In this document: one piece after another, positions 1 to 60,639 of the stretch | Numbering within the stretch: position 1 is the first letter of the stretch | Layout of the letters: every line of letters begins with the position of its first letter | Source: Candidatus Woesebacteria bacterium | GTDB taxonomy: Bacteria > Patescibacteriota > Microgenomatia > UBA8517 | Length of the DNA stretch: 64,000 bases | Direction: 5' to 3' | Assembly: GCA_013374835.1 (NCBI GenBank) | Contig: CP055307.1 | Span: 10,447-74,446, forward strand | Made by a program: the position numbers and the translations under genes | The notes under the pieces: generated by a model | What the model saw: only the letters and a program-made list of their open reading frames with translations | Database searches by the model: none | Told to the model about the DNA's origin: nothing

Positions 1-3000
1 AATGGAGTAACGCTTACCGATAACGGCACGACTGCTTCAGCAGGAGGAAAATTCAAGCTTGGGAGCGAACATATTCCTGCAAATAATGAGTATTTATCAG
101 CTGCTTCTACTATAAGCGGAGTTAAAAGTGTGAGCTTTTGGGTAAATCCAGACAGTAATACTAATTATTATATAAGCCTTACTTCATCGGCATATATTAC
201 ATCCACCTCAGGCACACTTTCTGCCAGCGGATTTAGCGATCCTAAAATTTATGTAAATGGAGTTAAGTCCAGCTCTATTTCAGCTAATACATGGTCTTTA
301 GTAACCGTTACCGACACAACTTCCATTGATGCAAACCAATTTTATGTAGGAAGGCAGGGATCAAACTATTTTGACGGGACCATGGATGAAGTTAGGCTAT
401 ATAATCGTGTTCTTTCGTCTGATGAGGTACGGTGGCTTTATGAATGGGCGCCGGGTCCAGGAGGATATTGGAAGTTCGATGAAGGTACAGGCAGTACGAC
501 CTATGATGTTTCAGGGAATTCAAATAATACAAGCTTTATAAATTCTCCTTTGTGGACAATAGGCAAAATAGGCTCTGCATTAGATTTTAACCCAACAGAT
601 ATGGATTCAGTATCTGTAGCTGGCAATAGTGTAATTTCCCCAACAACTTCTGGAACTATAATGGCATGGGTTAATTCAAATCGCAGTTACCCAAGTGACA
701 CTACTGATTTCAGATATAGAAATATAGTTAATAATTTTTCAAGCGGCAGCTGCACAGGAGCAAATTCATTTATTTTATCATGGACAGGTACAAATTCAGG
801 TGCTGATATTTATGGATGGTTGTGTGACGGGACAAATACTGATTATATTTCCTATTCAACAACTTTTACACCAGGCACTTGGTACCATGTGGCTATGGTA
901 TGGGACGGTGCTTATCAATATATATATTTAAACGGGATAATGGTAAAAAAAGAAACACAAACAATAAATGCACAGAATTCTTCAAATAATGTTAATATTG
1001 GATGCGGCTACGCTTCGACCTGTAATAACTGGGCTTACGCATGGGACGGGAAAATTGATGAAGTAAAAATTTACACTTACGCCCGTTCTCCACAACAAAT
1101 TGTGGAAGATATGAACGCCGGACATCCGACAGGTGGCTCACCTATCGGATCCCAAGTAGCAAGGTGGAAGTTTGATGATATGAATGGTACGACTGCTAAA
1201 GACAGCGGGCCGAATGGACAAAACTTGACACTTGTTAATACTCCCACCTGGACTTCTTTGGGCAAGCTTGAAGGGGCGCTTTCGTTTGCCAGTGCTTCGA
1301 GTGAATATGGATATGCCGCGGACAGTACTTCCCTTTCAATTACAGGAAGTTTAACCCTTTCGGCATGGATAAAACCAAGCTCAAATACCGCTTCAACATT
1401 CTATGATATTGCAGGCAAGTGGGATGGAACGAATGAAAGCTATCTTTTAACGCAATATGGGGATGAAATACGCTTTTATATTGATAGCAGCAGTGGGTAT
1501 ATAGAAACAACTACCGCAAACCTTGCTACAGGAACCTGGTATCATGTGGCGGGTGTTTATGATTCTGTGCTTCAAACTATGAAGATTTATATAAATGGTG
1601 TAGCGCAGTCAACTACTTCAACTACAGTGCCATCTTCAATTGGGGACGACGGAGGGAGATTCCATGTAGGTGCGAGCCATTCAACCGGCGGCAGCCCTTC
1701 AAATTTTTATAACGGTGTAATTGACGAAGTACACCTATATAATTCGGCCTTGAGCGATTCGCAGATTGCTATTGATTATAATTTCGGATCTGCAGTTAAT
1801 TATTCATCAGGTTATGAAGAAACGGATGATCTGGGAGATGGAGCGGGAAATCCGCCTATCGGCTATTGGCCTTTAGATGAAAACACAGGCACCAGCACTA
1901 CTTACGACAAATCAGGGAACGGCTATAACGGAACTCTAGGGGGTATACAAGAAGATGACTGGGTACCGGGAATGTTCGGCTCAGCTCTGGGCTTTGATGC
2001 AGCAAATGATTATGTACAAATTGCTGATAATGATGTGTTTTCCATAAACAACACAAACGAGATGACTGTGGGAGCTTGGATTAAACCTACTTCTGTATCC
2101 GGCACCACCTATATCGTCAGCAAAAGGTCCTCAAGCAATTATGAATGGCACTTGAACATAGCCTCCGGGTATTTACACGCTCATATATATACTCTTGCTG
2201 GATCTGATTATATGTATGCATTTGCTCCTACAACAATCAATGCCGGTGAATGGCATTACGTTGCATTTACAGCTGATTTAAACGCACCCGACCTTAAACT
2301 ATATATCGACGGGAAAGTGGTTGCCCAAGACACTACCTCTTCAGGAACTTATGGCAATGGCTCAGCCCCAGTCCGAATAGCAGAAGATGCAAACGGCGCG
2401 GGAGATTACAACGGAATAATTGATGAGGTGAAAATATATAATTATGCCCGCACTCAAGCCCAAATTGTCTATGATTATAACCGAGGGAGGCCAGTCGGAC
2501 ACTGGAAGTTCGACGAATGCCAAGGAACAACGGCTTATGATTCAAGCGGTAACGGCAAAAACGGTACTATAAGCCTTGGAGCTACACCTGCCGGCACTTG
2601 TACAGGATCTACAGGTGAGGCTTGGTATGAAGGCGCAAGTGGAAAGATTAATGCAAGCCTTAAGTTTGACGGAAGCGATGATTATGTTTACGTTACTAAT
2701 AACAGCATCCACAATATGGGCTCTGGGGATTTTACATTATCCGCTTGGTTTAAGACCTCAACAACCAGTACGGGAAATATAGTAGGCAAAGGCAGTACTT
2801 ATACCACGGGCAAGAGATACCAAATAAATATTAACGATACGACCGACTGTGCAAGTGGAAAGATTAAAGTTGAGATTGATGACGACACTACAAAAGAATT
2901 CATCTGCTCAACTTCAAGCTCGCTCAACAACAATTCCTGGCATCATGTGGTAATGATAAGAGACGGGAATAATTTGAGGCTTTTTATTGACGGAACTGAG

Positions 3001-3207
3001 GATACGAATTCCCCAAACGACATTACAGGATACGGAAATATAGACAGCAGCCGTGATTTTTATATTGGAGCGATTTATCAGGAAGGACTTGGCATAGCCG
3101 ATTATTACAATGGTTTGGTAGATGACGTAAGACTTTATAATTATGCTCTTTCAGCTAGTCAAGTACGAAAAGTTTATAACACAGAAGCAGCGGTGAGGTT
3201 TTGGTAA
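1..3207 (+). CDS. LamG / concanavalin-A-like lectin repeat protein, 5'-partial: frame 1 is open from nt 1, and the GTG at 130 is only the first in-window start
   Basis: Five repeats of the Laminin_G_3-type signature are visible (…DG.MDEVRLYNRVLSSDEVRWLY, IDEVKIYTYARSPQQI, IDEVHLYNSALSDSQI, IDEVKIYNYARTQAQI, VDDVRLYNYALSASQV), each preceded by a 'W.H.A..' jelly-roll core. There are no stops in frame 1 upstream of 130. Confidence 0.7.
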   Translation, partial: NGVTLTDNGTTASAGGKFKLGSEHIPANNEYLSAASTISGVKSVSFWVNPDSNTNYYISLTSSAYITSTSGTLSASGFSDPKIYVNGVKSSSISANTWSLVTVTDTTSIDANQFYVGRQGSNYFDGTMDEVRLYNRVLSSDEVRWLYEWAPGPGGYWKFDEGTGSTTYDVSGNSNNTSFINSPLWTIGKIGSALDFNPTDMDSVSVAGNSVISPTTSGTIMAWVNSNRSYPSDTTDFRYRNIVNNFSSGSCTGANSFILSWTGTNSGADIYGWLCDGTNTDYISYSTTFTPGTWYHVAMVWDGAYQYIYLNGIMVKKETQTINAQNSSNNVNIGCGYASTCNNWAYAWDGKIDEVKIYTYARSPQQIVEDMNAGHPTGGSPIGSQVARWKFDDMNGTTAKDSGPNGQNLTLVNTPTWTSLGKLEGALSFASASSEYGYAADSTSLSITGSLTLSAWIKPSSNTASTFYDIAGKWDGTNESYLLTQYGDEIRFYIDSSSGYIETTTANLATGTWYHVAGVYDSVLQTMKIYINGVAQSTTSTTVPSSIGDDGGRFHVGASHSTGGSPSNFYNGVIDEVHLYNSALSDSQIAIDYNFGSAVNYSSGYEETDDLGDGAGNPPIGYWPLDENTGTSTTYDKSGNGYNGTLGGIQEDDWVPGMFGSALGFDAANDYVQIADNDVFSINNTNEMTVGAWIKPTSVSGTTYIVSKRSSSNYEWHLNIASGYLHAHIYTLAGSDYMYAFAPTTINAGEWHYVAFTADLNAPDLKLYIDGKVVAQDTTSSGTYGNGSAPVRIAEDANGAGDYNGIIDEVKIYNYARTQAQIVYDYNRGRPVGHWKFDECQGTTAYDSSGNGKNGTISLGATPAGTCTGSTGEAWYEGASGKINASLKFDGSDDYVYVTNNSIHNMGSGDFTLSAWFKTSTTSTGNIVGKGSTYTTGKRYQININDTTDCASGKIKVEIDDDTTKEFICSTSSSLNNNSWHHVVMIRDGNNLRLFIDGTEDTNSPNDITGYGNIDSSRDFYIGAIYQEGLGIADYYNGLVDDVRLYNYALSASQVRKVYNTEAAVRFW

Positions 3208-3221
3208 AATAAAATTAAACT

Positions 3222-5342
3222 TTATACTGAATAATTATCAACCCATATCACATAATCTAGACCATCAACACGGCCATCTTCATTGAAGTCGCCTTGTGAG
3301 GGGCTGGAGACGTTTATGAATCCATAGTTGTCCACCCATATCACATAATCAAGCCCGTCAACCCGCCCATCCCCGTTTGCATCGCCGGGTTTTGAAAAAT
3401 TAATAGGAGTAGGTGTAACTGGAATAGGAATATAATTTCCACCCTGAACTAAACGGATGAATTCACTACCATTAGGCAATTCTTCAACATAAGCATAAGA
3501 TGCACCAATCTTTTTGTATTTAAACCAGTTACCAGTTTTACTTCTATAATAAGCTAAAGCCTCTGGATCCCATACCTCAGGTATATCATTGAAAAGTTCC
3601 ATATCAGTAAATAGTTTGGCTCTTTGCTGACTCCAGATGGCTTTTTCATTGCTTACCTGATAATTACCCACTAAAGAAAGTTCAGGCAAACCTCCGAGAA
3701 GAGCGGAAACAGTATCGTCTGTATTTTTTTCATTGCTTTCACGAGTCCAGGAATAACTACCAGTGAGAGCAACACGGAGGGGATGATTAATTTTTATGGA
3801 ACTGTAATAGCTTTTATAGGTTTCAGCTCCTTGCCAAGTATAAAAGGCGAATGGCATAATCCAAGGAGAAAGATATTCACTCATAATAGCAAAGTCTGGT
3901 TTGTGTACAAGAAAATTAGAGATGGCACTTACCTCCCCTGTAATATAGTCGTGGCCGTCTATAACCTTTTTCCCGGTTGAAAACATAAAGCCATGATCCA
4001 TGCCAAGAATATCCATATAAGCTCCTTGGCTTTTGTGGGTAGCAAGATAATTACCCAGATTTCTAACCAAATAGTTTTGAAATTTAGTTGAGCCAGGGTG
4101 AAGGACATACAAGGATGAACCATCAAAATAATTTACTTTAATATCTGACCAATAATTCTGCCAGTTTTGCGGAGTACTTTCGTAGTCGGGGTTAAAGCTA
4201 TACCCGGGAGGCAGATAACCCTGTGCGGATAATTGAGATAGTCTTGAAGAGGTACCCGAATCTGAATGAATAAGAGTCCAAGGGTGATAAAGAACAATAG
4301 GCATTTGATTAGCATTGAGAAGATTGGTAACCTCAGGAGTAGGCATACCGATCACTCTTGCCAGAGTATGATCACCGAATAAAACAATTCTATCACCATT
4401 CCAAAGGAAAAAAAGGATTTTTTTGGGATCAATGTTAAGCTTACCAGGGTCTTTTAACTCGCTAACTAATTGGCTAGCTCGAGAATAATTGTTTGTGCCC
4501 CAAAACATAGCATGAATATTTCTAACCCAGGGTGAAGTATTTTTCCAAAGAGGCTTTGCACCTGTTCTTTCTTCGAACTTAACACGCCAACGCTTTGCTG
4601 CTTTGTTCCAAGCTTTATATGTGCCAATACGCCATACTGGTGAAACAATTTTTTGAGAATTGGATTCTTTGGGATCGCGGCCGGTATTTAATAAGAGCGT
4701 GTCATAACTATTTTGATGATTTAGATTGATATTGTGAGGTGGATAACTGGTTGTTTCCGCCCAAAAAGCGGCCACGGAGTTATTGCCTTCGACAACTGCC
4801 ATAATTGGAGAGGGAAAGCTACTGTGATTGGAAGAATCATTGGAAGGAGGATCGCCTCGCTTGTATTTAGCACCACTCCCAAGTATAACTGAGGATTGGG
4901 TAATATTAATAATTGGTAAATCAAGCGATGATGGAATCCCATTACCCAAAGCAGTAAGCTGGATTAAAACCTCACCTGTTGTGTCAATATTGATATCAAA
5001 AATTAACTGCCTAGTCGAGATTGTGTAGATTAATCTGCCTTGGTTCGAATTTAATTTCTGAAATTCAACCGAGCTCGTTTCAGACGGCATAAATCCATTT
5101 GAAAAATATGGCCGATTAACCCAGGCACTGGTTTTAACCAACTCTTCACCTGAAGATATATCCTTAATGAAATTTATAACACCACCTTCGATAGACATTT
5201 CTAACTGAGATGTTTGAATTATGAGAATCTTATTAGCAAATAAAAAGTATTTATCTGATTGAGCTAAAATCTTAGGGGGGTTAAGGAAAATAAGTAAACC
5301 AAGCACCAAATGTAAAATTATACGACAGGTAAATTTTAACAT
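3222..5342 (-). CDS. secreted protein (signal peptide) with C-terminal tandem type-I dockerin-like module; the catalytic/binding domain is unidentified
   Basis: N-terminal hydrophobic signal (LVLGLLIFLNPPKILAQS). The C-terminus reads 'GDANGDGRVDGLDYVIWVDNYG…QGDFNEDGRVDGLDYVIWVDNY', which is two EF-hand-like D-x-N-x-D-G-x-V-D-x-x-D loops each followed by a helix, i.e. the duplicated dockerin architecture. Confidence 0.65.
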   Translation of the reverse strand: MLKFTCRIILHLVLGLLIFLNPPKILAQSDKYFLFANKILIIQTSQLEMSIEGGVINFIKDISSGEELVKTSAWVNRPYFSNGFMPSETSSVEFQKLNSNQGRLIYTISTRQLIFDINIDTTGEVLIQLTALGNGIPSSLDLPIINITQSSVILGSGAKYKRGDPPSNDSSNHSSFPSPIMAVVEGNNSVAAFWAETTSYPPHNINLNHQNSYDTLLLNTGRDPKESNSQKIVSPVWRIGTYKAWNKAAKRWRVKFEERTGAKPLWKNTSPWVRNIHAMFWGTNNYSRASQLVSELKDPGKLNIDPKKILFFLWNGDRIVLFGDHTLARVIGMPTPEVTNLLNANQMPIVLYHPWTLIHSDSGTSSRLSQLSAQGYLPPGYSFNPDYESTPQNWQNYWSDIKVNYFDGSSLYVLHPGSTKFQNYLVRNLGNYLATHKSQGAYMDILGMDHGFMFSTGKKVIDGHDYITGEVSAISNFLVHKPDFAIMSEYLSPWIMPFAFYTWQGAETYKSYYSSIKINHPLRVALTGSYSWTRESNEKNTDDTVSALLGGLPELSLVGNYQVSNEKAIWSQQRAKLFTDMELFNDIPEVWDPEALAYYRSKTGNWFKYKKIGASYAYVEELPNGSEFIRLVQGGNYIPIPVTPTPINFSKPGDANGDGRVDGLDYVIWVDNYGFINVSSPSQGDFNEDGRVDGLDYVIWVDNYSV

Positions 5343-5416
5343 TAATTAAGTATAACAATGACAACAAGAAAAATTAAAAAAATATAAGTTTGATTTTTTT
5401 AAATCTAAACTAAAAT

Positions 5417-6907
5417 TTAAACCAAATAATTATCCACCCAGATTACATAGTCGAGGCCATCTATCTTGCCATCCCTGTTGAAATCTCCCTGAGAAACACT
5501 GGCTCCTGAACTTATACCATAATTGTCAACCCAGATGACATAATCCAATCCGTCAACACGGCCGTCGCCATTAGCATCACCCAACTTAATCTGTGGGGTT
5601 GAGGAAGGGGTTTGCGTAGGACGCGGAGATCCCTCAAAACTAACGAAATCTCCCCTGCTATCTGGGATCGTTATTGAAGTTACTCTATTACCATTTCTAT
5701 CAAAGTATGTTTTGTCTGTTGGAAGCGAAATTGTTTTTGTGCTTCCGGTAAAATTCATATATATCATGCCCTTTGTTGTCTGGCGCTGGTACAAGCGATA
5801 GCCACGAGAACGGCCGGATTCTTGTTCACTTTGGAATTCACCAATTGGATCACCTATTTTGTTACGTATATCCTGAAAAATTTGCGGATTAATTTCTTTT
5901 TTAGTAGTGGCTGATTGTAAACAATGAAAAAAGTTATCTCCTCTTACCATCAAATAGCCTATATATGCTGTACGAACAACATCTTGATTATCAGGTATAT
6001 CGCGGACTCTTAGAAGCGCTACCTTATTTTGTTGGGCAAACCATTTGGTTCGATTCCACCAATCATACAGGGTATCTCGATTAATCGACGACAAATCCAT
6101 CGATGCAAATAAATCCTCGTGCATTATTCCATGAATATCTTTGTAAACATACTCAAATTTACTCCAATCTCCCATAGATCCCATATTTACCATTATCTTT
6201 ACATCGGGGTATTTTGCTTTGATTTTTCTGAAAAAAGTTGCAATATCCTCATAATACTCAGCTGGAGTTTTCCAAAAAGGATCATTCATAACAAGTCCAG
6301 AGCTTCCAAAACGAACAAAATTTCCACTGTCATCAAAAACACCATAGTTACTAGGGCTAAACATTCCATTATCAGAGCCTATCCAATCAGCAGGACCCAG
6401 GGTTGTTTGTCCAGGATAGGCAATTTTTCTGACATATTCATTAACAAAAAAATCGATAAAACGATCATCTGCCACGTCAGCAAGCTGAAAATTGTTACCC
6501 GATGGATAACCCCAAGCTGCATAAACATATCTTGTCTTACCTTGATATGTCGCGGTAACCATTACCGGAGGTCTACCTGCGGCAATCTCAGAATTATTAA
6601 GAGCAATCAGTTTTGAATAAGGAAAACCTGTGTGTCCTCCTGTTTCATCCCAAGTATTAAAATGATGAAAACGTGCGTGTTTAACTTTAAGTCCGTCCGG
6701 AGACATTTTAGTAAAAACATCATTTAAAGCGCCAAAGACTACTGCCCCCATTCCTTTCCAATCATCGTTATAGGGATAAACAAAGATGCTACCTCTCTCG
6801 CTTTTAGTGGGAACTGTTCTTTCTGCTTCTACCGGCTCTACAAGTGCAAACATTAAGGCTATAGATATAACAAGAAGAACAAATAAATTCAGAAGTTTGT
6901 TGCCCAT
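5417..6907 (-). CDS. secreted protein with Pro/Thr linker and C-terminal tandem dockerin-like module
   Basis: Signal peptide (LLVISIALMFALVEPVEA). A 'PRPTQTPSSTPQ' linker is followed by 'KLGDANGDGRVDGLDYVIWVDNYG…QGDFNRDGKIDGLDYVIWVDNY'. Confidence 0.65.
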   Translation of the reverse strand: MGNKLLNLFVLLVISIALMFALVEPVEAERTVPTKSERGSIFVYPYNDDWKGMGAVVFGALNDVFTKMSPDGLKVKHARFHHFNTWDETGGHTGFPYSKLIALNNSEIAAGRPPVMVTATYQGKTRYVYAAWGYPSGNNFQLADVADDRFIDFFVNEYVRKIAYPGQTTLGPADWIGSDNGMFSPSNYGVFDDSGNFVRFGSSGLVMNDPFWKTPAEYYEDIATFFRKIKAKYPDVKIMVNMGSMGDWSKFEYVYKDIHGIMHEDLFASMDLSSINRDTLYDWWNRTKWFAQQNKVALLRVRDIPDNQDVVRTAYIGYLMVRGDNFFHCLQSATTKKEINPQIFQDIRNKIGDPIGEFQSEQESGRSRGYRLYQRQTTKGMIYMNFTGSTKTISLPTDKTYFDRNGNRVTSITIPDSRGDFVSFEGSPRPTQTPSSTPQIKLGDANGDGRVDGLDYVIWVDNYGISSGASVSQGDFNRDGKIDGLDYVIWVDNYLV

Positions 6908-6932
6908 AATTTATGGTAACATAAAATTAAAA

Positions 6933-8216
6933 TCAAGTATTGTAATTATCCACCCAAATAACATAGTCAAGGCCATCGACCTTGCCATCCCTGTTGAAAT
7001 CTCCCTGAGAAACACTGGCCCCTGAGCTTGTACCGTAATTATCTACCCAGATGACATAATCCAATCCGTCAACACGGCCATCGCCATTAGCATCACCCCG
7101 TACAACCAGAGATGTAGCTGTTGGCATGGGAGAAAATGACGGAATTGGAATGCTTGGACAAAAGCTTGGGGAGTTTGGTGCGTTAACTTTAAGCCAACCG
7201 GGGATTATGCTTGCTGAGATGCTGTAAAGAGCACAATGCTGATTTTGATAGATATAGCTGCTACCGCTTTTTGAACCTAGCTGAGAGGAGAACATCCCAT
7301 GACGCCACGGCCACCAAGAAATTGTGTCAGCACCACCTGACTGTGAGACAAGACAAGCCCACCGTTCCATAGTAGATGGGCTTGGCATGTATTCTGCACC
7401 CATGGCTCCTAGAAGCATGTTTATTTTTACATTCGGATCGCGAGATTTAATATAATTTCGCTCTCTTTCAAAAAATATTTGCATTTCTTCTGCCGTATCG
7501 GTTGAAGGATCAGAGTCTTTCTCGTGAGTTTCATAATTAGGATAATCGTGAAGAAGAGCTATGTCTGCCTCCCCCGCTTCAAAGCCACGTTTTATTCCAT
7601 CACCGTTAATATTATCGTACCCCTCCATTTGTATCGCAGATCGGTAGTGAACAAACATTGGCACCCAAGTTCCATCATCTCTCATTGTTATTTCCTTATT
7701 TTTTTGATAAATCTCTTTACGTTGCGCCGTAACAAGATAATTTAGCCTGTTACCAATTCTCCAATCATCCATTACCTGATGATTCATTGTATAAGCATAA
7801 TTTCCTGCTATAGCAGGATGATATTTAAGGGCTTTGTTTGGAGCATATTTGTTATTAACTGGTATTTGATAATTAAAAAGATGATTAAATTTATTATATG
7901 CATCTGTCGGATCAAAAGTTGATCCCCCGAAACCACCCTTTTGATAAAGGGTGTTAAATACCACCTTTATATTGTTATCAGCTGCAGCATTTAAAACTTT
8001 TAAACCTTCGATTGGATCGCTATTATAAAGGGGGTACATTATCCAATTGATTCCGATCGACTTCAAATACGGAAAATCCGAAGTTTCCCAAACGCCATAA
8101 ACACCGTGGTATGTAGAATGCTTGGAGCCAATACACTGCATTGCATATGATTTGTTGGGAGTAATTAAAAAAGTGACAACTAAAATAAATATTATAAAAA
8201 TCAATTTTTTTCTCAT
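6933..8216 (-). CDS. secreted protein, possibly a TIM-barrel glycoside-hydrolase-like domain, with C-terminal tandem dockerin-like module
   Basis: Signal peptide. The C-terminus reads 'RGDANGDGRVDGLDYVIWVDNYG…QGDFNRDGKVDGLDYVIWVDNY'. The dockerin-coding DNA is near-identical to that of the 5417..6907 gene. Confidence 0.6.
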   Translation of the reverse strand: MRKKLIFIIFILVVTFLITPNKSYAMQCIGSKHSTYHGVYGVWETSDFPYLKSIGINWIMYPLYNSDPIEGLKVLNAAADNNIKVVFNTLYQKGGFGGSTFDPTDAYNKFNHLFNYQIPVNNKYAPNKALKYHPAIAGNYAYTMNHQVMDDWRIGNRLNYLVTAQRKEIYQKNKEITMRDDGTWVPMFVHYRSAIQMEGYDNINGDGIKRGFEAGEADIALLHDYPNYETHEKDSDPSTDTAEEMQIFFERERNYIKSRDPNVKINMLLGAMGAEYMPSPSTMERWACLVSQSGGADTISWWPWRHGMFSSQLGSKSGSSYIYQNQHCALYSISASIIPGWLKVNAPNSPSFCPSIPIPSFSPMPTATSLVVRGDANGDGRVDGLDYVIWVDNYGTSSGASVSQGDFNRDGKVDGLDYVIWVDNYNT

Positions 8217-9295
8217 AATTCATAATTATTTATCCAGATTACGTAGTCAAGGCCATCGACCTTGTGGTCGTTATTAAAATCCCCTTGAGAAACACTCTTT
8301 TCTTCTGAATTCATACCATAATTATCTACCCAAATAACATAATCAAGGCCATCGACCTTGCCATCCCCGTTTGCATCTCCCAACTTAGAAGGAGTAATTG
8401 AAGGGCTAGGAGAAATAGAGGGAAAAGTAGTAGGGATAGATGAGGGTGACTGTGTGGGGGTAGAAGTTTGTGTGGGATAGGGGGTAAAGACTGGACTAGC
8501 GGTAGGTAAAGGGGTATGATTTGTATGAGATTGCGAGATAGCAACATCATCGACGTAAATACTTACATGAGAGGGGGAGATGCTGTCTGTATAATTATTT
8601 ACACTCCACTGAATAGGAGTATCTGTAAGGGCTGTATGAGCTGATGGTACGTCAAAAATCTTCTGACCGTCCTGCCAGATAGCTACTCGTCCAGAATTTC
8701 CTGTATCAAGACGATAAAACCCTTCAATTAAAAACCACCTATCCCTAGGTACAGCAATGGGGTTAGTTTGCCGATATATCTTTTTTAAGCTATTACTATC
8801 AGGACGATAATAGAGCATAAGACTTACCGGATTTGTATTACCAGCAGTTCCTGCGTCTAAAGACCACATTGGAGTTGAGACGTTTGATGAACTTAGAGAT
8901 TTCCATTGCCAGATGTTCCACCATGCCCCGGGATTAATATTTGAGGGAATATAGTACCACGCCGAGAAATAGTTTTCTTTTGTAGGAAGCGCTTTCCACC
9001 TAAACAGATAGGCAGCTTGGGATCCCCCAGCAGAGAGGTCGATTTCGAGTGCTACTGCGTATTTTCCTGAATGAACGGGGAAGCTAACAACTGTTGCTTT
9101 ACCACTTACTCCCTGCCTAATAAAATCACCTCCGCCATCAGAATTCCAATCGGATATGTTCCCACTTTCAAAGCCAGTAGACCACAAGACTGAACTTTGA
9201 GCATAAGAGAAGGAAGGAAATAAATAAATACATAAAAATAAAATAAAAGAGATTGATATAAATACTTTTCTTATGTACATAAACAATTTTCTCAA
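8213..9295 (-). CDS. secreted jelly-roll-type protein with PT-rich linker and C-terminal tandem dockerin-like module
   Basis: Signal peptide (ISFILFLCIYLFPSFSYA). A 'PTQTSTPTQSPSSIPTTFPSISPSPSITP' linker is followed by 'KLGDANGDGKVDGLDYVIWVDNYG…QGDFNNDHKVDGLDYVIWINNY'. The stop overlaps the upstream gene's start (ATGA-type overlap). Confidence 0.6.
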   Translation of the reverse strand: MRKLFMYIRKVFISISFILFLCIYLFPSFSYAQSSVLWSTGFESGNISDWNSDGGGDFIRQGVSGKATVVSFPVHSGKYAVALEIDLSAGGSQAAYLFRWKALPTKENYFSAWYYIPSNINPGAWWNIWQWKSLSSSNVSTPMWSLDAGTAGNTNPVSLMLYYRPDSNSLKKIYRQTNPIAVPRDRWFLIEGFYRLDTGNSGRVAIWQDGQKIFDVPSAHTALTDTPIQWSVNNYTDSISPSHVSIYVDDVAISQSHTNHTPLPTASPVFTPYPTQTSTPTQSPSSIPTTFPSISPSPSITPSKLGDANGDGKVDGLDYVIWVDNYGMNSEEKSVSQGDFNNDHKVDGLDYVIWINNYEL

Positions 9296-9319
9296 ACATT
9301 AAGACTTTATTCAAATATA

Positions 9320-10417
9320 TTAAAGATTGAGGGAATCAACTAGCTGTTTGAGCATGGAGACCATAACTGCAGGCGCCATTAGGGATACACTTTCAACGCC
9401 GTTGTCATCCAAAATTCTCCATGGTTTTTCTTTGATATTTACTTTTTTGTTCTTTTTATCATAGCTTAAAATAAATTCAGGAGTAATTTCATAAGGGTCA
9501 AAATATTTACCCACTTCTTTAGCTGGAACGTGATTTCTTAATAAAACCTTTGGAATTCCATGAAGCGAAAATGCTTTTCTTAGTATATCCTCGTCTTTTT
9601 CAAGGCGGGGGCGAATGGGCTCGATACCAAGTTCATCCCCCTCTTTTGCTATCATTCTTTCACCTTTGCAAGAGGGATTGTCACACAGAAGGTAGAATTT
9701 GTGTTCTTTTTCATCGTAGCCTACTTTACTTGTTACCAAAAGTTTTAAGTTTCTTGAAGTTTGGCATTTGGGGCAGATGACGCGGTACTTAATCCGTTCT
9801 GCTATTACCGACTCGGGAATATCAATAAGGACAAAAACATCTGGATCATCACGGTAGTTTATTAAATCCCTGAAATACAGCGAATAGCTCACCTGATCAA
9901 GTTCACGGGGAAGACCGTCGATAAAAAGCACTTTTCCTTCGTGCTCTTTGATATAAAGCTTCATTAGAGCTAGGACAAATTCCGTCGGGAGAAGGTTCGC
10001 AGTAGAACGGCCTTTAAGTGCTTTTACAGCCTCTTCAAAGGATATAAAACCCCGGTAGTAGCTTTTGAGCTCATCTAATTTGTTTTTTGCAATTTTGTCC
10101 CAGTTTGCATCTGCATCACGGACTACATCTCCTACTGAAACGTGGGCTACTTTTTCCTCGCCGAAGATTTCGGTAAAAAGTTTTGAGTAAGTGCCTTTGC
10201 CAGAGTTTTTTTTGCCAAGAAGAAATGCTACAAAAGTGTTTGACTGCATGTAATTTTTGAGGGCTGCTATCTCGCCACCGGCTTTGGCTTCAAAATACTC
10301 ACTTCTCCCTTTTGGGCTATTGATATCAAATTTTTTGTTAAGCCCTTTTACTTTTGTCCCTATTATTGGGAATTCAAGTTTTTTCATCTTAATATTAATT
10401 AGAAATAATTCTATCAA
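9320..10417 (-). CDS. adenylate kinase family protein (NMP kinase) with N- and C-terminal extensions
   Basis: P-loop 'GKKNSGKGT', NMP-binding 'HVSVGDVVRD', 'LFIDGLPRELDQ', LID-domain Zn knuckles 'CPKC…CDNPSC' and 'RDDPD' are present in adenylate-kinase order. At 365 aa it is longer than a canonical Adk. Confidence 0.6.
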   Translation of the reverse strand: MIELFLINIKMKKLEFPIIGTKVKGLNKKFDINSPKGRSEYFEAKAGGEIAALKNYMQSNTFVAFLLGKKNSGKGTYSKLFTEIFGEEKVAHVSVGDVVRDADANWDKIAKNKLDELKSYYRGFISFEEAVKALKGRSTANLLPTEFVLALMKLYIKEHEGKVLFIDGLPRELDQVSYSLYFRDLINYRDDPDVFVLIDIPESVIAERIKYRVICPKCQTSRNLKLLVTSKVGYDEKEHKFYLLCDNPSCKGERMIAKEGDELGIEPIRPRLEKDEDILRKAFSLHGIPKVLLRNHVPAKEVGKYFDPYEITPEFILSYDKKNKKVNIKEKPWRILDDNGVESVSLMAPAVMVSMLKQLVDSLNL

Positions 10418-11705
10418 AACCGGCTTTATTTTTAAAAGGCCCGATGATTGCTAAATTTAGCCTTTCTTTGGAAAAAAAATTATTTGCTAGCTCTAAAAGT
10501 TCTTCTTTTTTTACCTTATCTATTTTCTCGAAAATTTCTTCAAGACTTTTTATTTTTCCAAGAAGAAGCTCCTCTTCTCCAAAAAATTGGTTTATTGCGC
10601 TTGTGTCCTCAAGGGCGAGCGATATCTTCCCTTTTATGTATTCTTTTGCTTTGGCAAGCTCTTTAGCCGTTATTTTGATTTTTTCATTTTTTAAATCTTC
10701 AAATACTTTAAGCATGATTTTGAGGGCGTCTTCAGCTTTGTTTGGTTCGACTCCAGCATATGCAGTAAAACGGCCAGTATCCGTATAGTGATCGCTATAA
10801 GTTTTTACAGCGTATGCGAGGCCTCTTTTTTCGCGAACCTCGGTAAACATCCTACTGCTCATGCCACCACCGAGAATAGCATTTAAGACTGCTTCAGCGT
10901 AGCGGTTTTTATGCCCAAGTCTTTCCCCTAGAAATCCAATCATTATATGCGCCTGATCCGTTTTTTTGTTTACCATTTTAATCTTCGGCGCCTTCTGAGA
11001 CGAAACAAACTTAACAGGAGGATTTTTTACTCCCCTTTTGATTGATCCGAAATATTTTTCTGAAAGCTTAAGTGCTTTGCTCTCTTCGATACTTCCCGAA
11101 AGAGTAATGAGCATATTTTGAGAAAAATAATATTTTTCGAGATAATTCTTGAAATCTTTGGCTGATATCCCATCTATTGCCTTTTTAGTGCCGATGATAT
11201 CACGGGCTAAGCTATTGCCCTCAAAGACTATATTTTCAAGAAATTCCTCCACTCTTCTTATCGGAAGATCCTCATACATATCCATTTCAGCCTTTATTAC
11301 TCCCTTTTCTCTTTCTATATCGGAAGGCTTAAGAAGTGGTGACAAAAGCATATCGGAGAGCACGTCAAAAGCTTTTTCAATTTTGTCCGCCCTTACTTTT
11401 ATATAAAAAAGGGTAATTTCTTTTCCTGTTGAAGCGTTAAATTCACCTCCTATTGAATCTATTGCTTCTGAAATTTTTTTAGCTGAATTGTATTTTTTAC
11501 CTCCTTTAAACACAATATGCTCCAAAAAATGGCTTATACCGGCTTTTGACTCATCTTCGTAGCGCGAGCCTACGTTTACCCACACTGTTAATGTTACTGA
11601 TTCTATCTTTTTAATAGATGTTGTGAGAATTTTTAAGTCATTAGAAAGAGTTGAGATATCCGGTTTCATGAAAGCTAGTATATCAGTATGAACTAAGATT
11701 AACAA
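10395..11705 (-). CDS. M16 family zinc metallopeptidase (pitrilysin/insulinase-like)
   Basis: The inverted zinc-binding motif HxxEH ('HFLEHIVFKG') lies near the N-terminus. The size and layout fit the M16 family. The gene overlaps the adenylate-kinase-like gene by 23 nt. Confidence 0.7.
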   Translation of the reverse strand: MLILVHTDILAFMKPDISTLSNDLKILTTSIKKIESVTLTVWVNVGSRYEDESKAGISHFLEHIVFKGGKKYNSAKKISEAIDSIGGEFNASTGKEITLFYIKVRADKIEKAFDVLSDMLLSPLLKPSDIEREKGVIKAEMDMYEDLPIRRVEEFLENIVFEGNSLARDIIGTKKAIDGISAKDFKNYLEKYYFSQNMLITLSGSIEESKALKLSEKYFGSIKRGVKNPPVKFVSSQKAPKIKMVNKKTDQAHIMIGFLGERLGHKNRYAEAVLNAILGGGMSSRMFTEVREKRGLAYAVKTYSDHYTDTGRFTAYAGVEPNKAEDALKIMLKVFEDLKNEKIKITAKELAKAKEYIKGKISLALEDTSAINQFFGEEELLLGKIKSLEEIFEKIDKVKKEELLELANNFFSKERLNLAIIGPFKNKAGFDRIISN

Positions 11706-11731
11706 TAAAATCTAAAAGACTGCGACAATGC

Positions 11732-13378
11732 TTACACGCTATAGTGATCTATCCAGATGACATAATCTAGGCCATCAACGCGGCTGTCGGCATTAAAATC
11801 GCCTTGAGAGGGGCCAGAAGAGTTTGAACGACCATAATTATCAACCCATATCACATAATCAAGCCCATCGACACGTCCGTCTCCGTTGGCATCACCTGGT
11901 TTAACTGTGGGTGAGGTTGCTTTTGGACTCGCAGATGGCGTAGGAGAAGCAGTTGCAGGGGTGGGTGAAGGTGTTGGAGTTGGAACAACCCCGCCACACG
12001 TTGAATCTGTACATCTTATTAACCTTATTCTGCCATAACTAAAATTGGGATAACCTGTTTCGTATGTTCCAAGACCCGCGCTGGCAGCGGCCTGATATAC
12101 CACCCGCGGTTCTCCACCTGGAAAAGAATTGTTATTAAAAGTCGCAATATAATCAATCATTACTGAATCTACTGCGATAGGATCAGTTGAAATAAAAATC
12201 GAACTTGGCCACGGTTTTATTCCATGAGCTGAATCTGGACTTTGACTCGGACCCCCGCTTTTTAGCCCGTACATTGCGTCTCCTACTACAAGAATTGTCT
12301 TATTTTTTATCCATGGTTGTGAATTTAAAACTACCAAAGAATAGCTACCATTATACGGCGAGGCTAAACCATAGTGAAAAGAAGACGGATTATTAGTACT
12401 GCCAAGATGATTTTTAAGGCTAAGAGTAACTCTCCCACCCTCGTGAGTACTAAGAAGTGGCATATTAATTAAATATTTTGCATCGCTTAAAATACAAGTA
12501 AGTCTAGCCGAACCATTTGGTCCAGTCCAAATATCGCTTCCACAAAAACCACCACCCGGATTCATCTGTACGTTTGGAAAACGCGACCTAATCCCAGCTT
12601 GAAACGGAGATTGAATAGGTCTTGAAGCATCGTAAAGAATTATATTTGACTGGCTAACTCCGACTTCGTTGACAAGCTGCCTTAGGAGAGAGTTAACAAC
12701 CTGATAGTTGGGGTTACGATTCGTGATCACTCCACTATTATTAAAATTAAGCTTTATTGCAATTTTTTCACCTTGAGTATAATCGGATCCTCCATTGAAA
12801 TTCTTAAAAATCTGTGACCACGAGGCCTTAACAGTTGATTGTCCGGTAAGCCTTTTAATCGCTGTATCCATCATCTCATCTGAAACAGAAGCGTTTACTC
12901 TTGCGCTTAAATCACTGCTCCATCCAGTTGCCGCCCTTGTATCTCTTATCCAAACAACAGTCGGCGCAGTCTGCCCTATGGACGTCTGAACTAGCTTTCT
13001 CTCCATCTGAAGCACGTAAACGCTATGCAACTTAGAGACCAAAAACAGTGCTGTGAGACCAAGAACAACCCCTCTTGCCAACAATTTTCCTCGTCTTTTT
13101 AGGCGATATGAAAGTACAGTAGATACAAACAATCCCGAAATCCAGCTTAAAAAAACAACGGAATTAGCAGCTGCTACTTTTTGACAAGGATATGTTAATC
13201 GACTCGGTTTCCTTCCAGACCTAATAATTAACCATAGCATACTCCCCAAACCAACAAGCAAAAATAACAAAGAGGGTGTATGCTTTTTTTTGTGTTGCAA
13301 AAGCCTTGCCTCTTCGTGAACCCTATAAAAGATATAACTGATAAATTTGTTTATATGCTTATTTAACTTTTTTTTCAT
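11732..13378 (-). CDS. membrane-anchored or secreted protein with PT-rich linker and C-terminal tandem dockerin-like module
   Basis: N-terminal TM/signal segment. A 'PTPTPSPTPATASPTPSASPKATSPTV' linker is followed by 'KPGDANGDGRVDGLDYVIWVDNYG…QGDFNADSRVDGLDYVIWIDHY'. Confidence 0.6.
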   Translation of the reverse strand: MKKKLNKHINKFISYIFYRVHEEARLLQHKKKHTPSLLFLLVGLGSMLWLIIRSGRKPSRLTYPCQKVAAANSVVFLSWISGLFVSTVLSYRLKRRGKLLARGVVLGLTALFLVSKLHSVYVLQMERKLVQTSIGQTAPTVVWIRDTRAATGWSSDLSARVNASVSDEMMDTAIKRLTGQSTVKASWSQIFKNFNGGSDYTQGEKIAIKLNFNNSGVITNRNPNYQVVNSLLRQLVNEVGVSQSNIILYDASRPIQSPFQAGIRSRFPNVQMNPGGGFCGSDIWTGPNGSARLTCILSDAKYLINMPLLSTHEGGRVTLSLKNHLGSTNNPSSFHYGLASPYNGSYSLVVLNSQPWIKNKTILVVGDAMYGLKSGGPSQSPDSAHGIKPWPSSIFISTDPIAVDSVMIDYIATFNNNSFPGGEPRVVYQAAASAGLGTYETGYPNFSYGRIRLIRCTDSTCGGVVPTPTPSPTPATASPTPSASPKATSPTVKPGDANGDGRVDGLDYVIWVDNYGRSNSSGPSQGDFNADSRVDGLDYVIWIDHYSV

Positions 13379-15408
13379 CCCCCATAATTATCCACCCAAA
13401 TAACATAATCAAGCCCATCGACTCTATGGTCATTATTAAAATCACCCAGAGAAACACTCGCCCCTGAGTTCGTACCATAATTATCCACCCAAATAACATA
13501 ATCAAGCCCATCGACACGTCCGTCTCCGTTGGCATCACCTGGTTTACCAGATGGAGTTGCGCTGGGCGAACCAATTGGCGGCTGTATTCCTGGCTCAAAT
13601 CCCGGAAAAGGTATTGGAGTTGGTATAGGTAAGGATGAACAGTTATCGGTTGTTACAGTACCGCTTGTTCCTGTCTCGATAATTTTGCCAGTATTTTTAC
13701 ATAATGTTATACCTACTGCATTACGCAGATAGATATCCGCATACGGATGATTGTGTCCAGAATTATTGGAAACCAAAGAGTTATGAGCACGAATTACAAA
13801 ACCATTTCGCGCTAGACCGTAACCCGTATAATATGAATGGTTGTTAATAATTTTCATATTACTTGCTGAATCTGTACAAATTCCACCCAAACCATTGCTA
13901 CTGGGATTAACCCATTGGTTGTCATACATAACGTTGTTGCGAGCTTCGTTTCCATTACCGTTAAACCAGATAGCACAGGCACCTTGATGGATAATTGTAT
14001 TGCCCTCCACAAGATTGTTATATCCATTAAGCGTAACACCCATGTCCTCTCCGTCTGCAATATAGTTGCCGATAACTTTTACATTAGGGCCGCCAAAAAA
14101 CGATAGCTGGTCTGACCAGCCGCGAAGCGCCACATTGCCTTTAATTAAACTGTCGTGCATTCCCGGTTCAGCATGAACGGCGGTATAGTTAGTTCGCCTT
14201 GTTAAAACCTCATAGCGCGTACCATTTGGCGGAGTTACTCTTTTACCTGTTAAATCCCACCAATCATGTACATTAATACGAGTAGAAGTAAAATTTCCTC
14301 CACCCCAAAGAGCGCCTAAATAAACACCGTAGGCGGTATATGGAGTACCATCTGGCGGTGCAGAACGCGGAAGTCTATCGCTGTCGTTAAGCCATTCTTC
14401 AACCGTAATTTTTGTTTCCGAGTCAACTTTTAAAACCACGCCAAAAGCACCATCGCTTGTCTTAATAATTTCTCCTTTTAAAATTCCGCTGGAAACAAAC
14501 TTTGCGGTGGGATCGGTAAGAGTGTTTTTGGTATAAGTTGCTGAACCCTGTTCGCGTACAGGCATTACTCTAATATTTACCACTACATCAGTCGACCTTC
14601 GCTCTTGCTCTGGAAAATTACCAAAACGAGCATTGGTATCAGTAAGAGAATTACTGGTATAAGTAACGCTATTTCCCTGTCCTGTGTGTGGACCGGCTTT
14701 AACCAACCACCAGTAACCATCAAACCAATTATCTTCAATAGTTATATTTCGAGCATTATAAACTCTATCCTGCTCAGAATTAAAAATAATTCCCTCGTGT
14801 AGCCAAAGAAATTTATTTCTACGAAAAACTAAATTATTAGCGTCGAAATTAACAAGTACTGCCCTCCCCATAACAACCCCAGGTGAATGAAAAAGAGAGT
14901 CTTCAATTACTACATCTTGTGCGTTGGTAAGCACAATTATATTCATGTCTCTTGTATTCCAAAAACGGCACCTGCTTATTCTAAAGGGACGCGGAGCCCC
15001 AGAACCATTAATATCAATCTGCGTTGACCCGCCGCTAGTCGTGTCAAAACCAAGATCTTCAATAGCTACATTAGAAACATTCGCTGTACTTTCAACAGTT
15101 CTACCTGTTGCCACTAGGACAGACTGGTACATTCCTGCGCCTTTAAAGGTTACATTTGATTTAGTTAAAGGCAGTGCTCTGCTGCCAACTTTGTAACGCC
15201 CTGGTGGAAAATAAACCACACCCCCACCCGCCGGTAAGGCATTAAATGCCGCATGGATTGCTCCTGTATCATCTGCTGTGCCGTTACCAAGGGCACCATA
15301 GTCTTTTACATTGACGGTAGTTTGAGCTTTAGTAGAGGAGAAAAAAATGAAAAAAAATGAAATACTGATAATTTGAAAAATAAAAAATAAATAAATTTTT
15401 TTAAACAT
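13375..15408 (-). CDS. right-handed parallel beta-helix (pectate-lyase superfamily) secreted protein with C-terminal tandem dockerin-like module
   Basis: The N-terminal 'VNVKDYGALGNGTADDTGAIHAAFNA…GGVVYFPPGRYKV' is the classic pectate-lyase_3 / GH28-like start. The C-terminus reads 'KPGDANGDGRVDGLDYVIWVDNYG…LGDFNNDHRVDGLDYVIWVDNY'. Confidence 0.7.
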   Translation of the reverse strand: MFKKIYLFFIFQIISISFFFIFFSSTKAQTTVNVKDYGALGNGTADDTGAIHAAFNALPAGGGVVYFPPGRYKVGSRALPLTKSNVTFKGAGMYQSVLVATGRTVESTANVSNVAIEDLGFDTTSGGSTQIDINGSGAPRPFRISRCRFWNTRDMNIIVLTNAQDVVIEDSLFHSPGVVMGRAVLVNFDANNLVFRRNKFLWLHEGIIFNSEQDRVYNARNITIEDNWFDGYWWLVKAGPHTGQGNSVTYTSNSLTDTNARFGNFPEQERRSTDVVVNIRVMPVREQGSATYTKNTLTDPTAKFVSSGILKGEIIKTSDGAFGVVLKVDSETKITVEEWLNDSDRLPRSAPPDGTPYTAYGVYLGALWGGGNFTSTRINVHDWWDLTGKRVTPPNGTRYEVLTRRTNYTAVHAEPGMHDSLIKGNVALRGWSDQLSFFGGPNVKVIGNYIADGEDMGVTLNGYNNLVEGNTIIHQGACAIWFNGNGNEARNNVMYDNQWVNPSSNGLGGICTDSASNMKIINNHSYYTGYGLARNGFVIRAHNSLVSNNSGHNHPYADIYLRNAVGITLCKNTGKIIETGTSGTVTTDNCSSLPIPTPIPFPGFEPGIQPPIGSPSATPSGKPGDANGDGRVDGLDYVIWVDNYGTNSGASVSLGDFNNDHRVDGLDYVIWVDNYGG

Positions 15409-17419: not shown

Positions 17420-17851
17420 TTGTATATGGACGAAGAAGAACTTCCAAAACCGGATAACGCTGAAGGTAAAGACGACCCAAATCTTTTAATACTCGAGCAA
17501 CTTATAAAAAAGGCAGGCAGTATAAGCGATCCACTAAAATCCGCAGTTAAAGCCAATGCTCTTTCTTACCTTAAGGCAATTTATACAAGTTCACTGACGA
17601 TTAAAGATGACGACGATTACCAGAAAACTCTTGATATGTATAAAAATTTTGTAGAATCTTTAAAAAATTCCGAAATATATTTAGAGATTAAGAATATCGA
17701 TGAAGAAGAACTGCAGGAACTTACTCCTGTTATTTCGGTTATTGAAGATGCTCTAAAAATAGCGAATGATGAAAGGATAGTAACTCCTAAAAATAGTCAT
17801 TTCGCTTCTGGTTCAACTACTAACGATCCTAGTTTACCTTCTCAAGAGTAA
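17420..17851 (+). CDS. hypothetical acidic protein
   Basis: Complete ORF with an ATG start, and the only plus-strand gene in a minus-strand block. No recognisable motifs. Confidence 0.35.
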   Translation: MYMDEEELPKPDNAEGKDDPNLLILEQLIKKAGSISDPLKSAVKANALSYLKAIYTSSLTIKDDDDYQKTLDMYKNFVESLKNSEIYLEIKNIDEEELQELTPVISVIEDALKIANDERIVTPKNSHFASGSTTNDPSLPSQE

Positions 17852-27506: not shown

Positions 27507-27577
27507 TGGACCTAGCCAGAATCGAACTGGCAATTTACCCATGCGAAGGGTACGGTATACCATTTACCTATAGGCCC
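27507..27577 (-). tRNA. tRNA-Ala (anticodon CGC)
   Basis: Manual fold of the minus-strand sequence GGGCCTA-TA-GGTA…TACC-G-TACCC-TTCGCAT-GGGTA-AATT-GCCAG-TTCGATT-CTGGC-TAGGTCC-A. A G3·U70 Ala identity pair is present. It is 71 nt, and CCA is not encoded. Confidence 0.75.
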
Positions 27578-35944: not shown

Positions 35945-36049
35945 ATTATCCTATAATACCATAAATGGGTAGGATTTCCAGTATGAACATTCTTAACCGA
36001 AGCTCTACTTGGCCTTAATTCAAAACCCACTTTAATTATTATACTACAG
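35945..36049 (-). promoter_or_regulatory. conserved promoter / ~85-nt 5'UTR element (copy 1 of 3)
   Basis: About 90% identical to 38313..38418 and 41434..41577. The minus strand reads '(c)TGTAGTATAATAATTAAAGTGGGTTTTGAATTAAGGCCAAGTAGAGCTTCAG…TATAGGATAAnATG', with a -10 TATAAT and an AGGA SD. Confidence 0.5.

Positions 36050-58170: not shown

Positions 58171-58209
<39 letters not shown>

Positions 58210-58394: not shown

Positions 58395-58427
<33 letters not shown>

Positions 58428-60588: not shown

Positions 60589-60639
<51 letters not shown>

Follow-up and report, generated by a model that had tools for sequence, protein, structure and literature searches.

The 64,000-nucleotide stretch of Candidatus Woesebacteria contig CP055307.1 analyzed here (positions 10,447 to 74,446; the window) carries six minus-strand genes, g1 to g6, between its positions 3222 and 15408, whose products end in a common module of 55-56 residues behind otherwise unrelated domains. 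By its profile matches and predicted fold this module is a genuine, divergent dockerin, and it is conserved through strong purifying selection. We posit, with a probability of about 0.6, that it serves to dock secreted hydrolases, in a Ca2+-dependent manner, onto cohesins that are anchored to the cell and encoded outside the window, and that it would thus display enzymes at the cell surface. The question bears on the candidate phyla radiation (CPR, or Patescibacteria), bacteria with tiny genomes that presumably feed on other cells or on scavenged polymers and whose retention of extracellular enzymes is little understood.

A dockerin module on six unrelated exported proteins

An earlier note, made from the letters of this stretch, had listed six minus-strand genes with unrelated N-terminal parts; the open reading frame (ORF) listing verifies their coordinates (Table 1), and the N-terminal parts are pairwise only 16-20% identical. 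The genes lie close together in the order g6-g5-M16-ADK-g4-g3-g2-g1, at spacings of -23 to +74 bp and with 295 bp upstream of g6, and scans for promoters and terminators returned site counts no higher than in shuffled sequence. Export signals are present in all six products, as a signal-peptide-like start in five and as three transmembrane (TM)-like segments in g5. The domains that would be exported are diverse. The pectate-lyase-type β-helix named in the earlier note is borne out in g6, which encodes a right-handed β-helix of the pectate-lyase/rhamnogalacturonase type (PF12708, 55.3 bits; PF13229, 46.2 bits), and its jelly-roll domain corresponds to the polysaccharide lyase match of g4. A match to the NCBIfam rhamnogalacturonidase model scored 32 against a cut-off of 500, which is far too low, and was not used for naming. 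The N-terminal domains of g1, g2 and g3 have no Pfam match even at E<=10 and no sequence relative in the PDB, and only 2 relatives of the g3 domain were found among 1.84 billion representative proteins. The putative TIM-barrel-like domain of the earlier note, referred to g2 or g3, thus found no confirmation in these searches. The two genes that split the array, one adenylate kinase (ADK)-like and one for an M16 peptidase, had been taken for housekeeping genes, and we agree: they are syntenic housekeeping genes and probably stand outside the system.

The shared module reads (K/R/L/P)GDANGDG(R/K)VDGLDYVIWVDNYG-x8-10-GDFNxDxx(V/I)DGLDYVIW(V/I)(D/N)(N/H)Y and occupies the C-terminal end of g1-g6, with the stop codon 0-1 residues past it. 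It follows a Pro/Thr-rich (PT) linker of varying length, very short in g1, such that P, T and S together make up 25-72% of the preceding 40 residues. These modules had been described as identical; what they share is the architecture, the sequences being merely similar, 71-91% identical in protein and 66-88% in DNA. In a six-frame motif scan of the 64 kb, the loop motif is confined to g1-g6. A chance origin of the shared module is excluded.

Each module consists of two segments of ~22 residues that are 75-90% identical to each other, and the 12-residue loops DANGDGRVDGLD and DFNxDxxVDGLD are found in all six. Asp or Asn occupies positions 1, 3, 5, 9 and 12 of both loops, the canonical Ca2+ ligand pattern of established dockerin structures. 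In the Dockerin_1 (PF00404) search of the six C termini that the earlier note had proposed, five modules pass the gathering score of 22.9 bits (27.1-30.5 bits) and g6 stays below it at 20.1; the g6 module is 75-85% identical to the other five and, like its paralogs, reaches 112 bits with a hidden Markov model (HMM) of the module. Among 69 CPR relatives, 56 match Dockerin_1 at E<0.001. An AlphaFold2 (AF2) model of the g3 module, computed for a 62-residue construct (7 linker residues plus the module) from 34 sequences, has a mean predicted local distance difference test score (pLDDT) of 91.5 and a predicted template-modeling score (pTM) of 0.76, with helices at residues 19-28 and 50-59 that both begin at loop position 10. 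All 26 Foldseek matches of this model in the PDB are dockerins; the best, 2y3n_B, has a probability of 1.00, a template-modeling score of 0.75 and a root-mean-square deviation of 1.5 Å, and the E-values are modest, 7e-3 at best, because the domain is small. The module profile likewise finds dockerins as its best matches among PDB sequences, yet only at E 0.02-0.04, with weak EF-hand/S100 similarities among the matches. The dockerin identity proposed in the earlier note is therefore upheld by Pfam, the Ca2+ loops and the predicted fold, whereas its type I label is not: no X-module precedes the g1-g6 dockerins, and we do not think that type I, II or III can be assigned to them, because the module represents a divergent subfamily, its PDB sequence matches being no better than E~0.02.

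Across the two segments of the six paralogs 34 residues are invariant; 28 of these use more than one synonymous codon, and of the other six, two are Trp, for which only one codon exists. For most module pairs synonymous divergence (dS) is saturated, nonsynonymous divergence (dN) is 0.05-0.12 and their ratio, where computable, is 0.03-0.09. Because synonymous sites are saturated, the likeness of the modules is due to purifying selection and not to gene conversion, which the differing synonymous codons rule out as its source. That six unrelated proteins retain one surface fits what is expected of one shared binding partner.

Arrays and cohesins in related genomes

A homolog search with the module profile gave mostly fragments of <100 residues, without architecture information, and a scan of genome contigs, with one genome per GTDB species, was used instead. 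It located the dockerin variant in Woesebacteria, Gottesmanbacteria, Amesbacteria, WWE3 and other Microgenomates, and also in metagenome-assembled genomes (MAGs) labeled Planctomycetes, Gammaproteobacteria/Pseudomonadales and Anaerolineales. Arrays are the rule in CPR genomes with this dockerin. Woesebacteria GW2011_GWB1_38_8b has a run of 8 consecutive genes and one Gottesmanbacteria genome has at least 15; a groundwater Microgenomates MAG has 9, WWE3 has 4, and the congener Candidatus Woesebacteria UBA1430 has 5+3. CPR genomes with dockerin arrays have been deposited since 2015, and arrays are present in at least eight. The recurrence of arrays of 4-10 dockerin-ending genes in Woesebacteria, Gottesmanbacteria, WWE3 and other Microgenomates, together with a proteomics report discussed below, leaves without support the expectation in the earlier note that dockerin display would be out of place in organisms of this kind.

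The module mostly stands at the extreme C terminus. In several Gottesmanbacteria proteins it is N-terminal, following the signal peptide and followed in turn by a PT linker, and in some others it is internal; the Gottesmanbacteria module type reads …IWLNNYN where the Woesebacteria type reads …IWVDNYG. Planctomycetes loci (L023, L029, L031-L043) encode dozens of proteins in which the dockerin, …VDGLDYVIWSNNY, lies directly upstream of a PEP-CTERM signal (VPEP, TM, RRRR); the flanks of these 15 loci contain no cohesin. The Planctomycetes dockerin sits in a protein that is already covalently anchored, which implies for it some role there beyond self-anchoring. The MAG CAYRUS01, labeled Gammaproteobacteria (L008, L012, L017, L018, L020, L025), encodes many proteins with this dockerin and long PT linkers, and two loci labeled Gammaproteobacteria or Pseudomonadales (L019, L021) combine dockerin proteins with cohesin-like genes in a gene style that resembles that of CPR loci. 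Either the system is more widely shared or these taxonomic labels are doubtful.

The cargo of the 69 CPR relatives comprises sulfatases, S8 subtilases, glycoside hydrolase family 5 (GH5) enzymes, polysaccharide and alginate lyases and beta-lactamase-fold proteins, and also phytase, phosphoesterases, PQQ propellers and glucose/sorbosone dehydrogenase. GH5 accounts for only 2 of the 69, most of the cargo being other hydrolases. This breadth indicates that the dockerin tag marks exo-hydrolases generally and not only cellulases.

Among clusters of the non-dockerin ORFs in CPR loci, one family stands out whose genes are scattered through the arrays of six genomes. Its members are built from an N-terminal TM helix, a β-rich domain of ~150 residues and a PT- or Ser/Thr (ST)-rich linker, and many end in a single or double dockerin-like segment. 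With Pfam Cohesin (PF00963, gathering score 24.1 bits), L013:5411-6937 scores 37.5 bits, L045:11434-12258 35.1 bits and L011:2756-3601 29.5 bits, and the remaining members reach 15-23 bits, below the cut-off. The family profile matches cohesins only in the PDB (6kg8/6kgc, E 0.001, full domain length), and two independently built cohesin HMMs recognize each other's members. An AF2 model of P0032 shows a TM helix and then ~11 strands, with a pLDDT of ~70-86 for the domain, and its 12 best Foldseek matches are all cohesins, with E down to 9e-7. An hhalign comparison with three Clostridium thermocellum cohesins was weak (probability 9%) because the template is narrow; UniRef names two members "Cohesin domain-containing protein". 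Judged by profiles and predicted fold, the partner family in the relatives is a family of cohesin-domain proteins.

Cohesin genes lie within the fetched flanks, inside or beside the arrays, in six of eight other CPR genomes. In UBA1430 (L002/L045), five dockerin genes are followed, directly after the g3 ortholog, by three cohesin genes, the third of which ends in an ST-rich linker, IPDTG and a hydrophobic tail, that is, in an LPXTG-type sortase signal; a third congener (L049/L050) likewise has a g3 ortholog and then three cohesins. Each cohesin protein of the congeners has one cohesin domain and is anchored by a TM segment or a sortase signal. An unrelated CPR-like contig (L046) carries ribosomal genes, a Dockerin_1 protein, a Cohesin protein and a cohesin-like protein, in that order. 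A metagenome scan with a single cohesin-like protein found only a UBA1430-type contig, and a homolog search with the full sortase-anchored cohesin, swamped by the low-complexity S/T/P linker of the query, gave 39% identity as its best non-self match and no ortholog from the window organism. The view that the partner of the window dockerins is encoded elsewhere is thus plausible, relatives encoding cohesins inside or beside equivalent arrays. Two further arrangements deserve mention. In the third congener, the g3 ortholog P0047 (L049:1-1224) stops right after the first dockerin segment (…GDANGDFRVDGLDYVIWVDNYGT-stop) and so has a half-dockerin, immediately upstream of the cohesin trio. In Gottesmanbacteria RIFCSPHIGHO2_01_FULL_40_15, five cohesin-bearing genes adjoin a dockerin gene (L026:10227-18122), and one of them encodes a 969-residue protein with CBM96 and two cohesin-like domains, a classical scaffoldin architecture.

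UBA1430 also offers the closest comparison for the window. Its housekeeping proteins are 85-92% identical to those of the window, and the synteny LeuRS…ArgRS-M16-ADK-dockerin genes (LeuRS and ArgRS, leucyl- and arginyl-tRNA synthetase) is kept, the order ArgRS-M16-ADK-dockerin genes recurring in its locus L003 at 90-92% identity. In L003 the g4 and g2 orthologs adjoin ADK, and those of g5 and g3 lie in L002; no ortholog of g1 or g6 turned up in the loci fetched from relatives. The window array looks like a merger of two UBA1430-type arrays, minus the cohesin trio. The orthologs of the catalytic domains are 50-84% identical between congeners, compared with 85-92% for housekeeping proteins, and array content differs too; by these identities, the cargo evolves much faster than the dockerin plug.

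Proposed docking onto anchored cohesins and rival explanations

We posit that the g1-g6 enzymes are exported via Sec signal peptides and that their C-terminal dockerins, folded around two Ca2+ ions, would bind a monovalent cohesin that is itself fixed to the cell through an N-terminal TM helix or a sortase signal. Binding would probably be possible in either of two orientations, because the internal symmetry of the dockerin is near-perfect, and the PT linker would give the catalytic domain reach. The outcome would be the non-covalent display of swappable hydrolases on an ultra-small cell: with such a rack, a 0.2-µm cell would retain hydrolases, and the products they release, at its surface and could exchange its enzyme set by simple gene gain and loss. 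The substrates could be environmental or host-envelope polymers.

Several observations weigh against this proposal. The earlier note had seen no cohesin in the window, and Pfam and two custom HMMs agree, finding none among the large and small secreted ORFs of the window or of L001, a 12 kb Logan contig that carries g1 and reaches 6.8 kb past the left window edge. The synteny between g3 and the cohesins is broken in the window, where g3 is followed by g2 and g1, and the cohesins of this organism may have been lost. The six-of-eight co-localization is a raw count, uncorrected for the background of cohesins in random CPR loci, and two CPR genomes with large arrays (L005, L016) have no cohesin within +/-10 kb. 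Finally, the same dockerin subfamily in Planctomycetes has its own covalent anchor and no nearby cohesins, so the subfamily does not always work through adjacent cohesins.

Other features of the window point toward a partner. The first dockerin segment of g1, g5 and g6 matches that of a UBA1430 array gene at 22 of 22 residues, an identity that speaks for a common specificity in the two organisms. From this identity, together with two sortases and an LPETG substrate encoded in the window, we infer that the window organism more likely has retained the partner. The window sortases could possibly be the anchoring machinery for a sortase-signal cohesin like that of the congeners.

The dockerins could instead act without cohesins, as Ca2+-dependent adhesins or anchors that attach the enzymes to the cell's own wall, an S-layer, a pilus, a LamG giant or host glycans and so target them to a host or substrate surface. 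The cohesin-free window, the two giant LamG adhesin-like proteins that flank the array (see below) and the presence of the subfamily in Planctomycetes and in two CPR arrays without a nearby cohesin would all be accounted for, and non-cellulosomal dockerins of Omnitrophota and Saccharibacteria have been discussed as adhesins or glycan binders; in a cultivated Saccharibacterium, a single essential dockerin-domain protein has been noted in the literature. We nevertheless regard this as unlikely: cohesin genes lie in or adjacent to the arrays of six of the eight other CPR genomes and of both congeners, the module fold matches cohesin-binding dockerins only, and the segment is identical to that of a cohesin-bearing congener.

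A true cellulosome, in which several enzymes assemble on one multivalent scaffoldin bearing a carbohydrate-binding module (CBM) for synergistic degradation of plant cell walls, is less probable still. The literature does use the term "cellulosome" for Microgenomates parts, GH5 cellulases occur among the dockerin cargo of relatives, and the Gottesmanbacteria protein with CBM96 and two cohesin-like domains would suit such an assembly; that protein, however, was found only in this distant genome. Within the genus, each cohesin protein has just one cohesin domain and a TM or sortase anchor, the window cargo (a lyase, a β-helix protein, DUF362 and orphans) includes no cellulase, and CPR cargo consists mainly of non-cellulolytic hydrolases such as sulfatases, S8 proteases, phytase and phosphoesterases. 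With no multi-cohesin CBM scaffoldin in the window and with GH5/9/48-type enzymes not the main cargo, the array falls outside the definition of a cellulosome, and its earlier description as cellulosome-like applies only loosely.

It is very improbable that the module is a purely structural Ca2+ element that stabilizes or folds secreted proteins, or senses Ca2+, with no docking partner. Intact Ca2+ loops and the weak EF-hand/S100 similarities would suffice for such a role, but the DYVIW(V/I)xNY helix is invariant in six unrelated proteins despite saturated synonymous sites, and identity that extends well beyond the Ca2+ ligands argues for a shared binding surface; a flexible PT linker, such as the one ahead of the module, typically sets off an autonomous docking module, and the co-occurrence with cohesins also speaks against it. 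Least credible of all is a secretion or sorting signal for a sortase-, exosortase- or type IX secretion system (T9SS)-like processing system, a scenario raised in the earlier note: the module does stand at the extreme C terminus in the window, which also encodes sortases, but its positional freedom (N-terminal or internal in Gottesmanbacteria, ahead of a separate PEP-CTERM in Planctomycetes) excludes a C-terminal sorting signal, the module is a folded 55-residue domain without a hydrophobic/charged or TM tail, and the real sortase substrate of the window carries LPETG plus a TM segment instead.

It is possible, rather than probable, that the cohesin-dockerin pair of Microgenomates has been repurposed as a general "plug-and-socket" rack for the exoenzymes of ultra-small cells, in which a few cohesins fixed by membrane or sortase would carry a fast-changing, orphan-rich cargo, perhaps aimed at host envelopes or extracellular polymeric substances and not at plant biomass. 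The arrays would then be a hot spot where episymbiotic CPR bacteria adapt their host range or niche.

Cohesin-dockerin systems of this kind have been published before in Microgenomates. Bell et al. (bioRxiv 10.1101/2021.08.21.457207 = PMC9123182) describe cohesin- and dockerin-domain proteins of Candidatus Shapirobacterales (Microgenomates) that were expressed and detected by proteomics, and Geesink et al. 2020, as cited by Bell et al. (PMC9123182), reported "cellulosomes" in Candidatus Roizmanbacterium. These reports concern the same superphylum, with cohesin and dockerin proteins accompanied by polysaccharide lyases and glycoside hydrolases; the passages of Bell et al. that treat the subject are short domain-annotation statements without mention of gene arrays, of single cohesins with a TM or sortase anchor or of a non-CAZyme and orphan cargo, and they deal with a different lineage than this Woesebacteria. 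In a literature search of incomplete coverage, we found no paper on the array organization, the anchored single-cohesin partners or the breadth of cargo. The window offers a clean six-gene example with three orphan catalytic domains, and the comparison with relatives supplies candidate binding pairs; its value lies in added detail and in new candidates for enzymes and binding pairs, and it brings no new principle.

The proposed system would be closer to the clostridial surface anchors with a single cohesin than to a multi-enzyme cellulosome. In C. thermocellum OlpA and OlpC (PDB 3ul4, 4dh2), whose structures rank with the best Foldseek matches of the CPR cohesin-like model, an envelope-bound monovalent cohesin binds single type I dockerin enzymes and serves display, not scaffolding. 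These anchors rely on SLH domains and a Gram-positive wall, whereas the CPR anchors are an N-terminal TM helix or an IPDTG signal, the dockerins are divergent and binding is a prediction. Ruminococcus flavefaciens ScaE (PDB 2zf9) is a cohesin anchored by an LPXTG-type signal, and the Ruminococcus bromii amylosome is a cohesin-dockerin assembly of non-cellulolytic enzymes; the Ruminococcus systems belong to another phylum and, unlike the window, have hierarchical multi-cohesin scaffoldins and type III modules with X-domains. With the clostridial type I dockerin (Cel48S/CipA, 1ohz; Bacteroides cellulosolvens, 2y3n) the window module has in common two ~22-residue loop-helix segments in C-terminal position after a PT linker, and with dual-binding-mode type I dockerins a strong internal symmetry. 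It differs from the classical form in being shorter (55 residues), in having Gly-Leu and not the Ser-Thr recognition pair at loop positions 10-11, in its invariant DYVIW helix motif, in belonging to a subfamily common to Planctomycetes and other MAGs, and in a cargo that is not made up of cellulases. Non-cellulosomal dockerins, such as those of the Peer et al. 2009 survey and of C. perfringens NagH/NagJ (2ozn), are similar in that their cargo is unrelated to cellulose breakdown and their hosts are not cellulosome producers; the multi-gene array of the window, with paralogous tails, unrelated heads and co-localized cohesins in relatives, is more system-like than the isolated, scattered modules that are commonly described.

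Flanking surface proteins and other features of the window

Table 1. Positions of the array genes, their neighbors, the sortase genes and the orthologs of array genes in congeners (window positions unless a locus is named)
Feature	Position	Strand	Description
LamG-repeat giant surface protein, TM-anchored	1..3207	+	C-terminal 1068 codons in window; Laminin_G_3 371 bits, 5 stretches
g1	3222..5342	-	706 aa; signal peptide, orphan ~620 aa domain, very short linker, dockerin 3225-3389; Dockerin_1 28.2 bits
g2	5417..6907	-	496 aa; signal peptide, orphan ~410 aa domain, PT linker, dockerin 5420-5584; Dockerin_1 28.7 bits
g3	6933..8216	-	427 aa; signal peptide, orphan ~340 aa domain, PT linker, dockerin 6936-7100; Dockerin_1 30.5 bits
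g4	8213..9295	-	360 aa; signal peptide, Polysacc_lyase PF14099 (41.9 bits), long PT linker, dockerin 8216-8383; Dockerin_1 27.1 bits
ADK-like gene	9320-10417	-	PF00406, 39 bits
M16 peptidase gene	10395-11705	-	Pfam match
g5	11732..13378	-	548 aa; three N-terminal TM-like segments, DUF362 (45 bits), PT linker, dockerin 11735-11899; Dockerin_1 28.2 bits
g6	13375..15408	-	677 aa; signal peptide, right-handed β-helix, PT linker, dockerin 13378-13542; Dockerin_1 20.1 bits
Sortase	45081-45812	-	PF04203; overlaps substrate gene
Sortase substrate	45724-46323	-	small Cys-rich PT-linker protein ending LPETG + TM
Second sortase	54103-54813	-	PF04203
g2 ortholog	L003:10196-11692 (UBA1430)		84% identical
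g4 ortholog	L003:9002-10162 (UBA1430)		51% identical
g5 ortholog	L002:8513-10165 (UBA1430)		50% identical
g3 orthologs	two congeners, L002 in UBA1430		63% identical

The array is flanked by a LamG protein that had been described as having five repeats; five Laminin_G_3 stretches do lie in the window, but the protein, complete on L001, is 1681 residues long and has seven, with DUF2341 and an N-terminal TM segment. A second, tandem LamG giant of at least 1645 residues lies upstream of it and also has an N-terminal TM segment and DUF2341; the two giants together take up L001:2288-12270. An exact-match lookup found g1 solely on L001 and returned nothing for g3; Logan run SRR6186653 contains an identical contig of 12 kb. 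Neither giant has a dockerin or cohesin HMM match, and a role as the scaffold was rejected for want of a cohesin signal; they are probably adhesins. A match of the giants to the NCBIfam fimbrial model TafC was sub-threshold (190 vs 410) and was not used for naming.

The two window sortases score 75 and 45 bits with PF04203, and the LPETG substrate contains no cohesin domain. A 102-residue protein with a C-terminal TM segment is encoded at 53739-54047 (-), adjoining the second sortase; it and the LPETG protein count as sortase-dependent surface proteins.

Elsewhere, the window carries CPR hallmarks. The 23S rRNA gene at 58058-62053 (-) measures 3996 nt against a 2925-nt model, with ~1.07 kb of extra sequence that contains an ORF at 59143-59658 (-) for a LAGLIDADG homing endonuclease (PF00961, 70.9 bits) and matches no Rfam intron family at gathering score; such an insertion is typical of CPR rRNA genes. 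Competence genes on the minus strand are split into adjacent ORFs for ComEA (19730-20347), the ComEC "Competence" domain (18659-19720) and the ComEC metallo-beta-lactamase domain (17829-18659), an arrangement that is also kept in UBA1430.

Three paralogous proteins of ~640 residues without a Pfam match are encoded at 34043-35944, 36396-38312 and 39490-41433 (all -). Two of them have twin-arginine-like N termini (TRREFLK, TRRQVLE), each followed by a small secreted Cys-rich protein (ORFs at 36039-36350 and 39079-39468), which looks like a repeated two-gene cassette. The N-terminal part of a PT-rich Big_2 protein (31579-33507) is Cys-rich too and, by eye, perhaps related to these Cys-rich proteins.

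An SH3_3 ORF with internally repeated segments of ~120 residues (52213-53478, -) lies in a 2 kb block of 52.8% GC, compared with ~38% elsewhere in the window, that may be foreign DNA. A 395-residue ORF (24174-25361, +) matches phage integrases in their N-terminal SAM-like domains only, the catalytic domain giving no match. It sits in the block where the GC content of the window is lowest (31.8%), with a tRNA gene at 27507-27577 (-) ~2 kb away, and may be the remnant of an integrated element.

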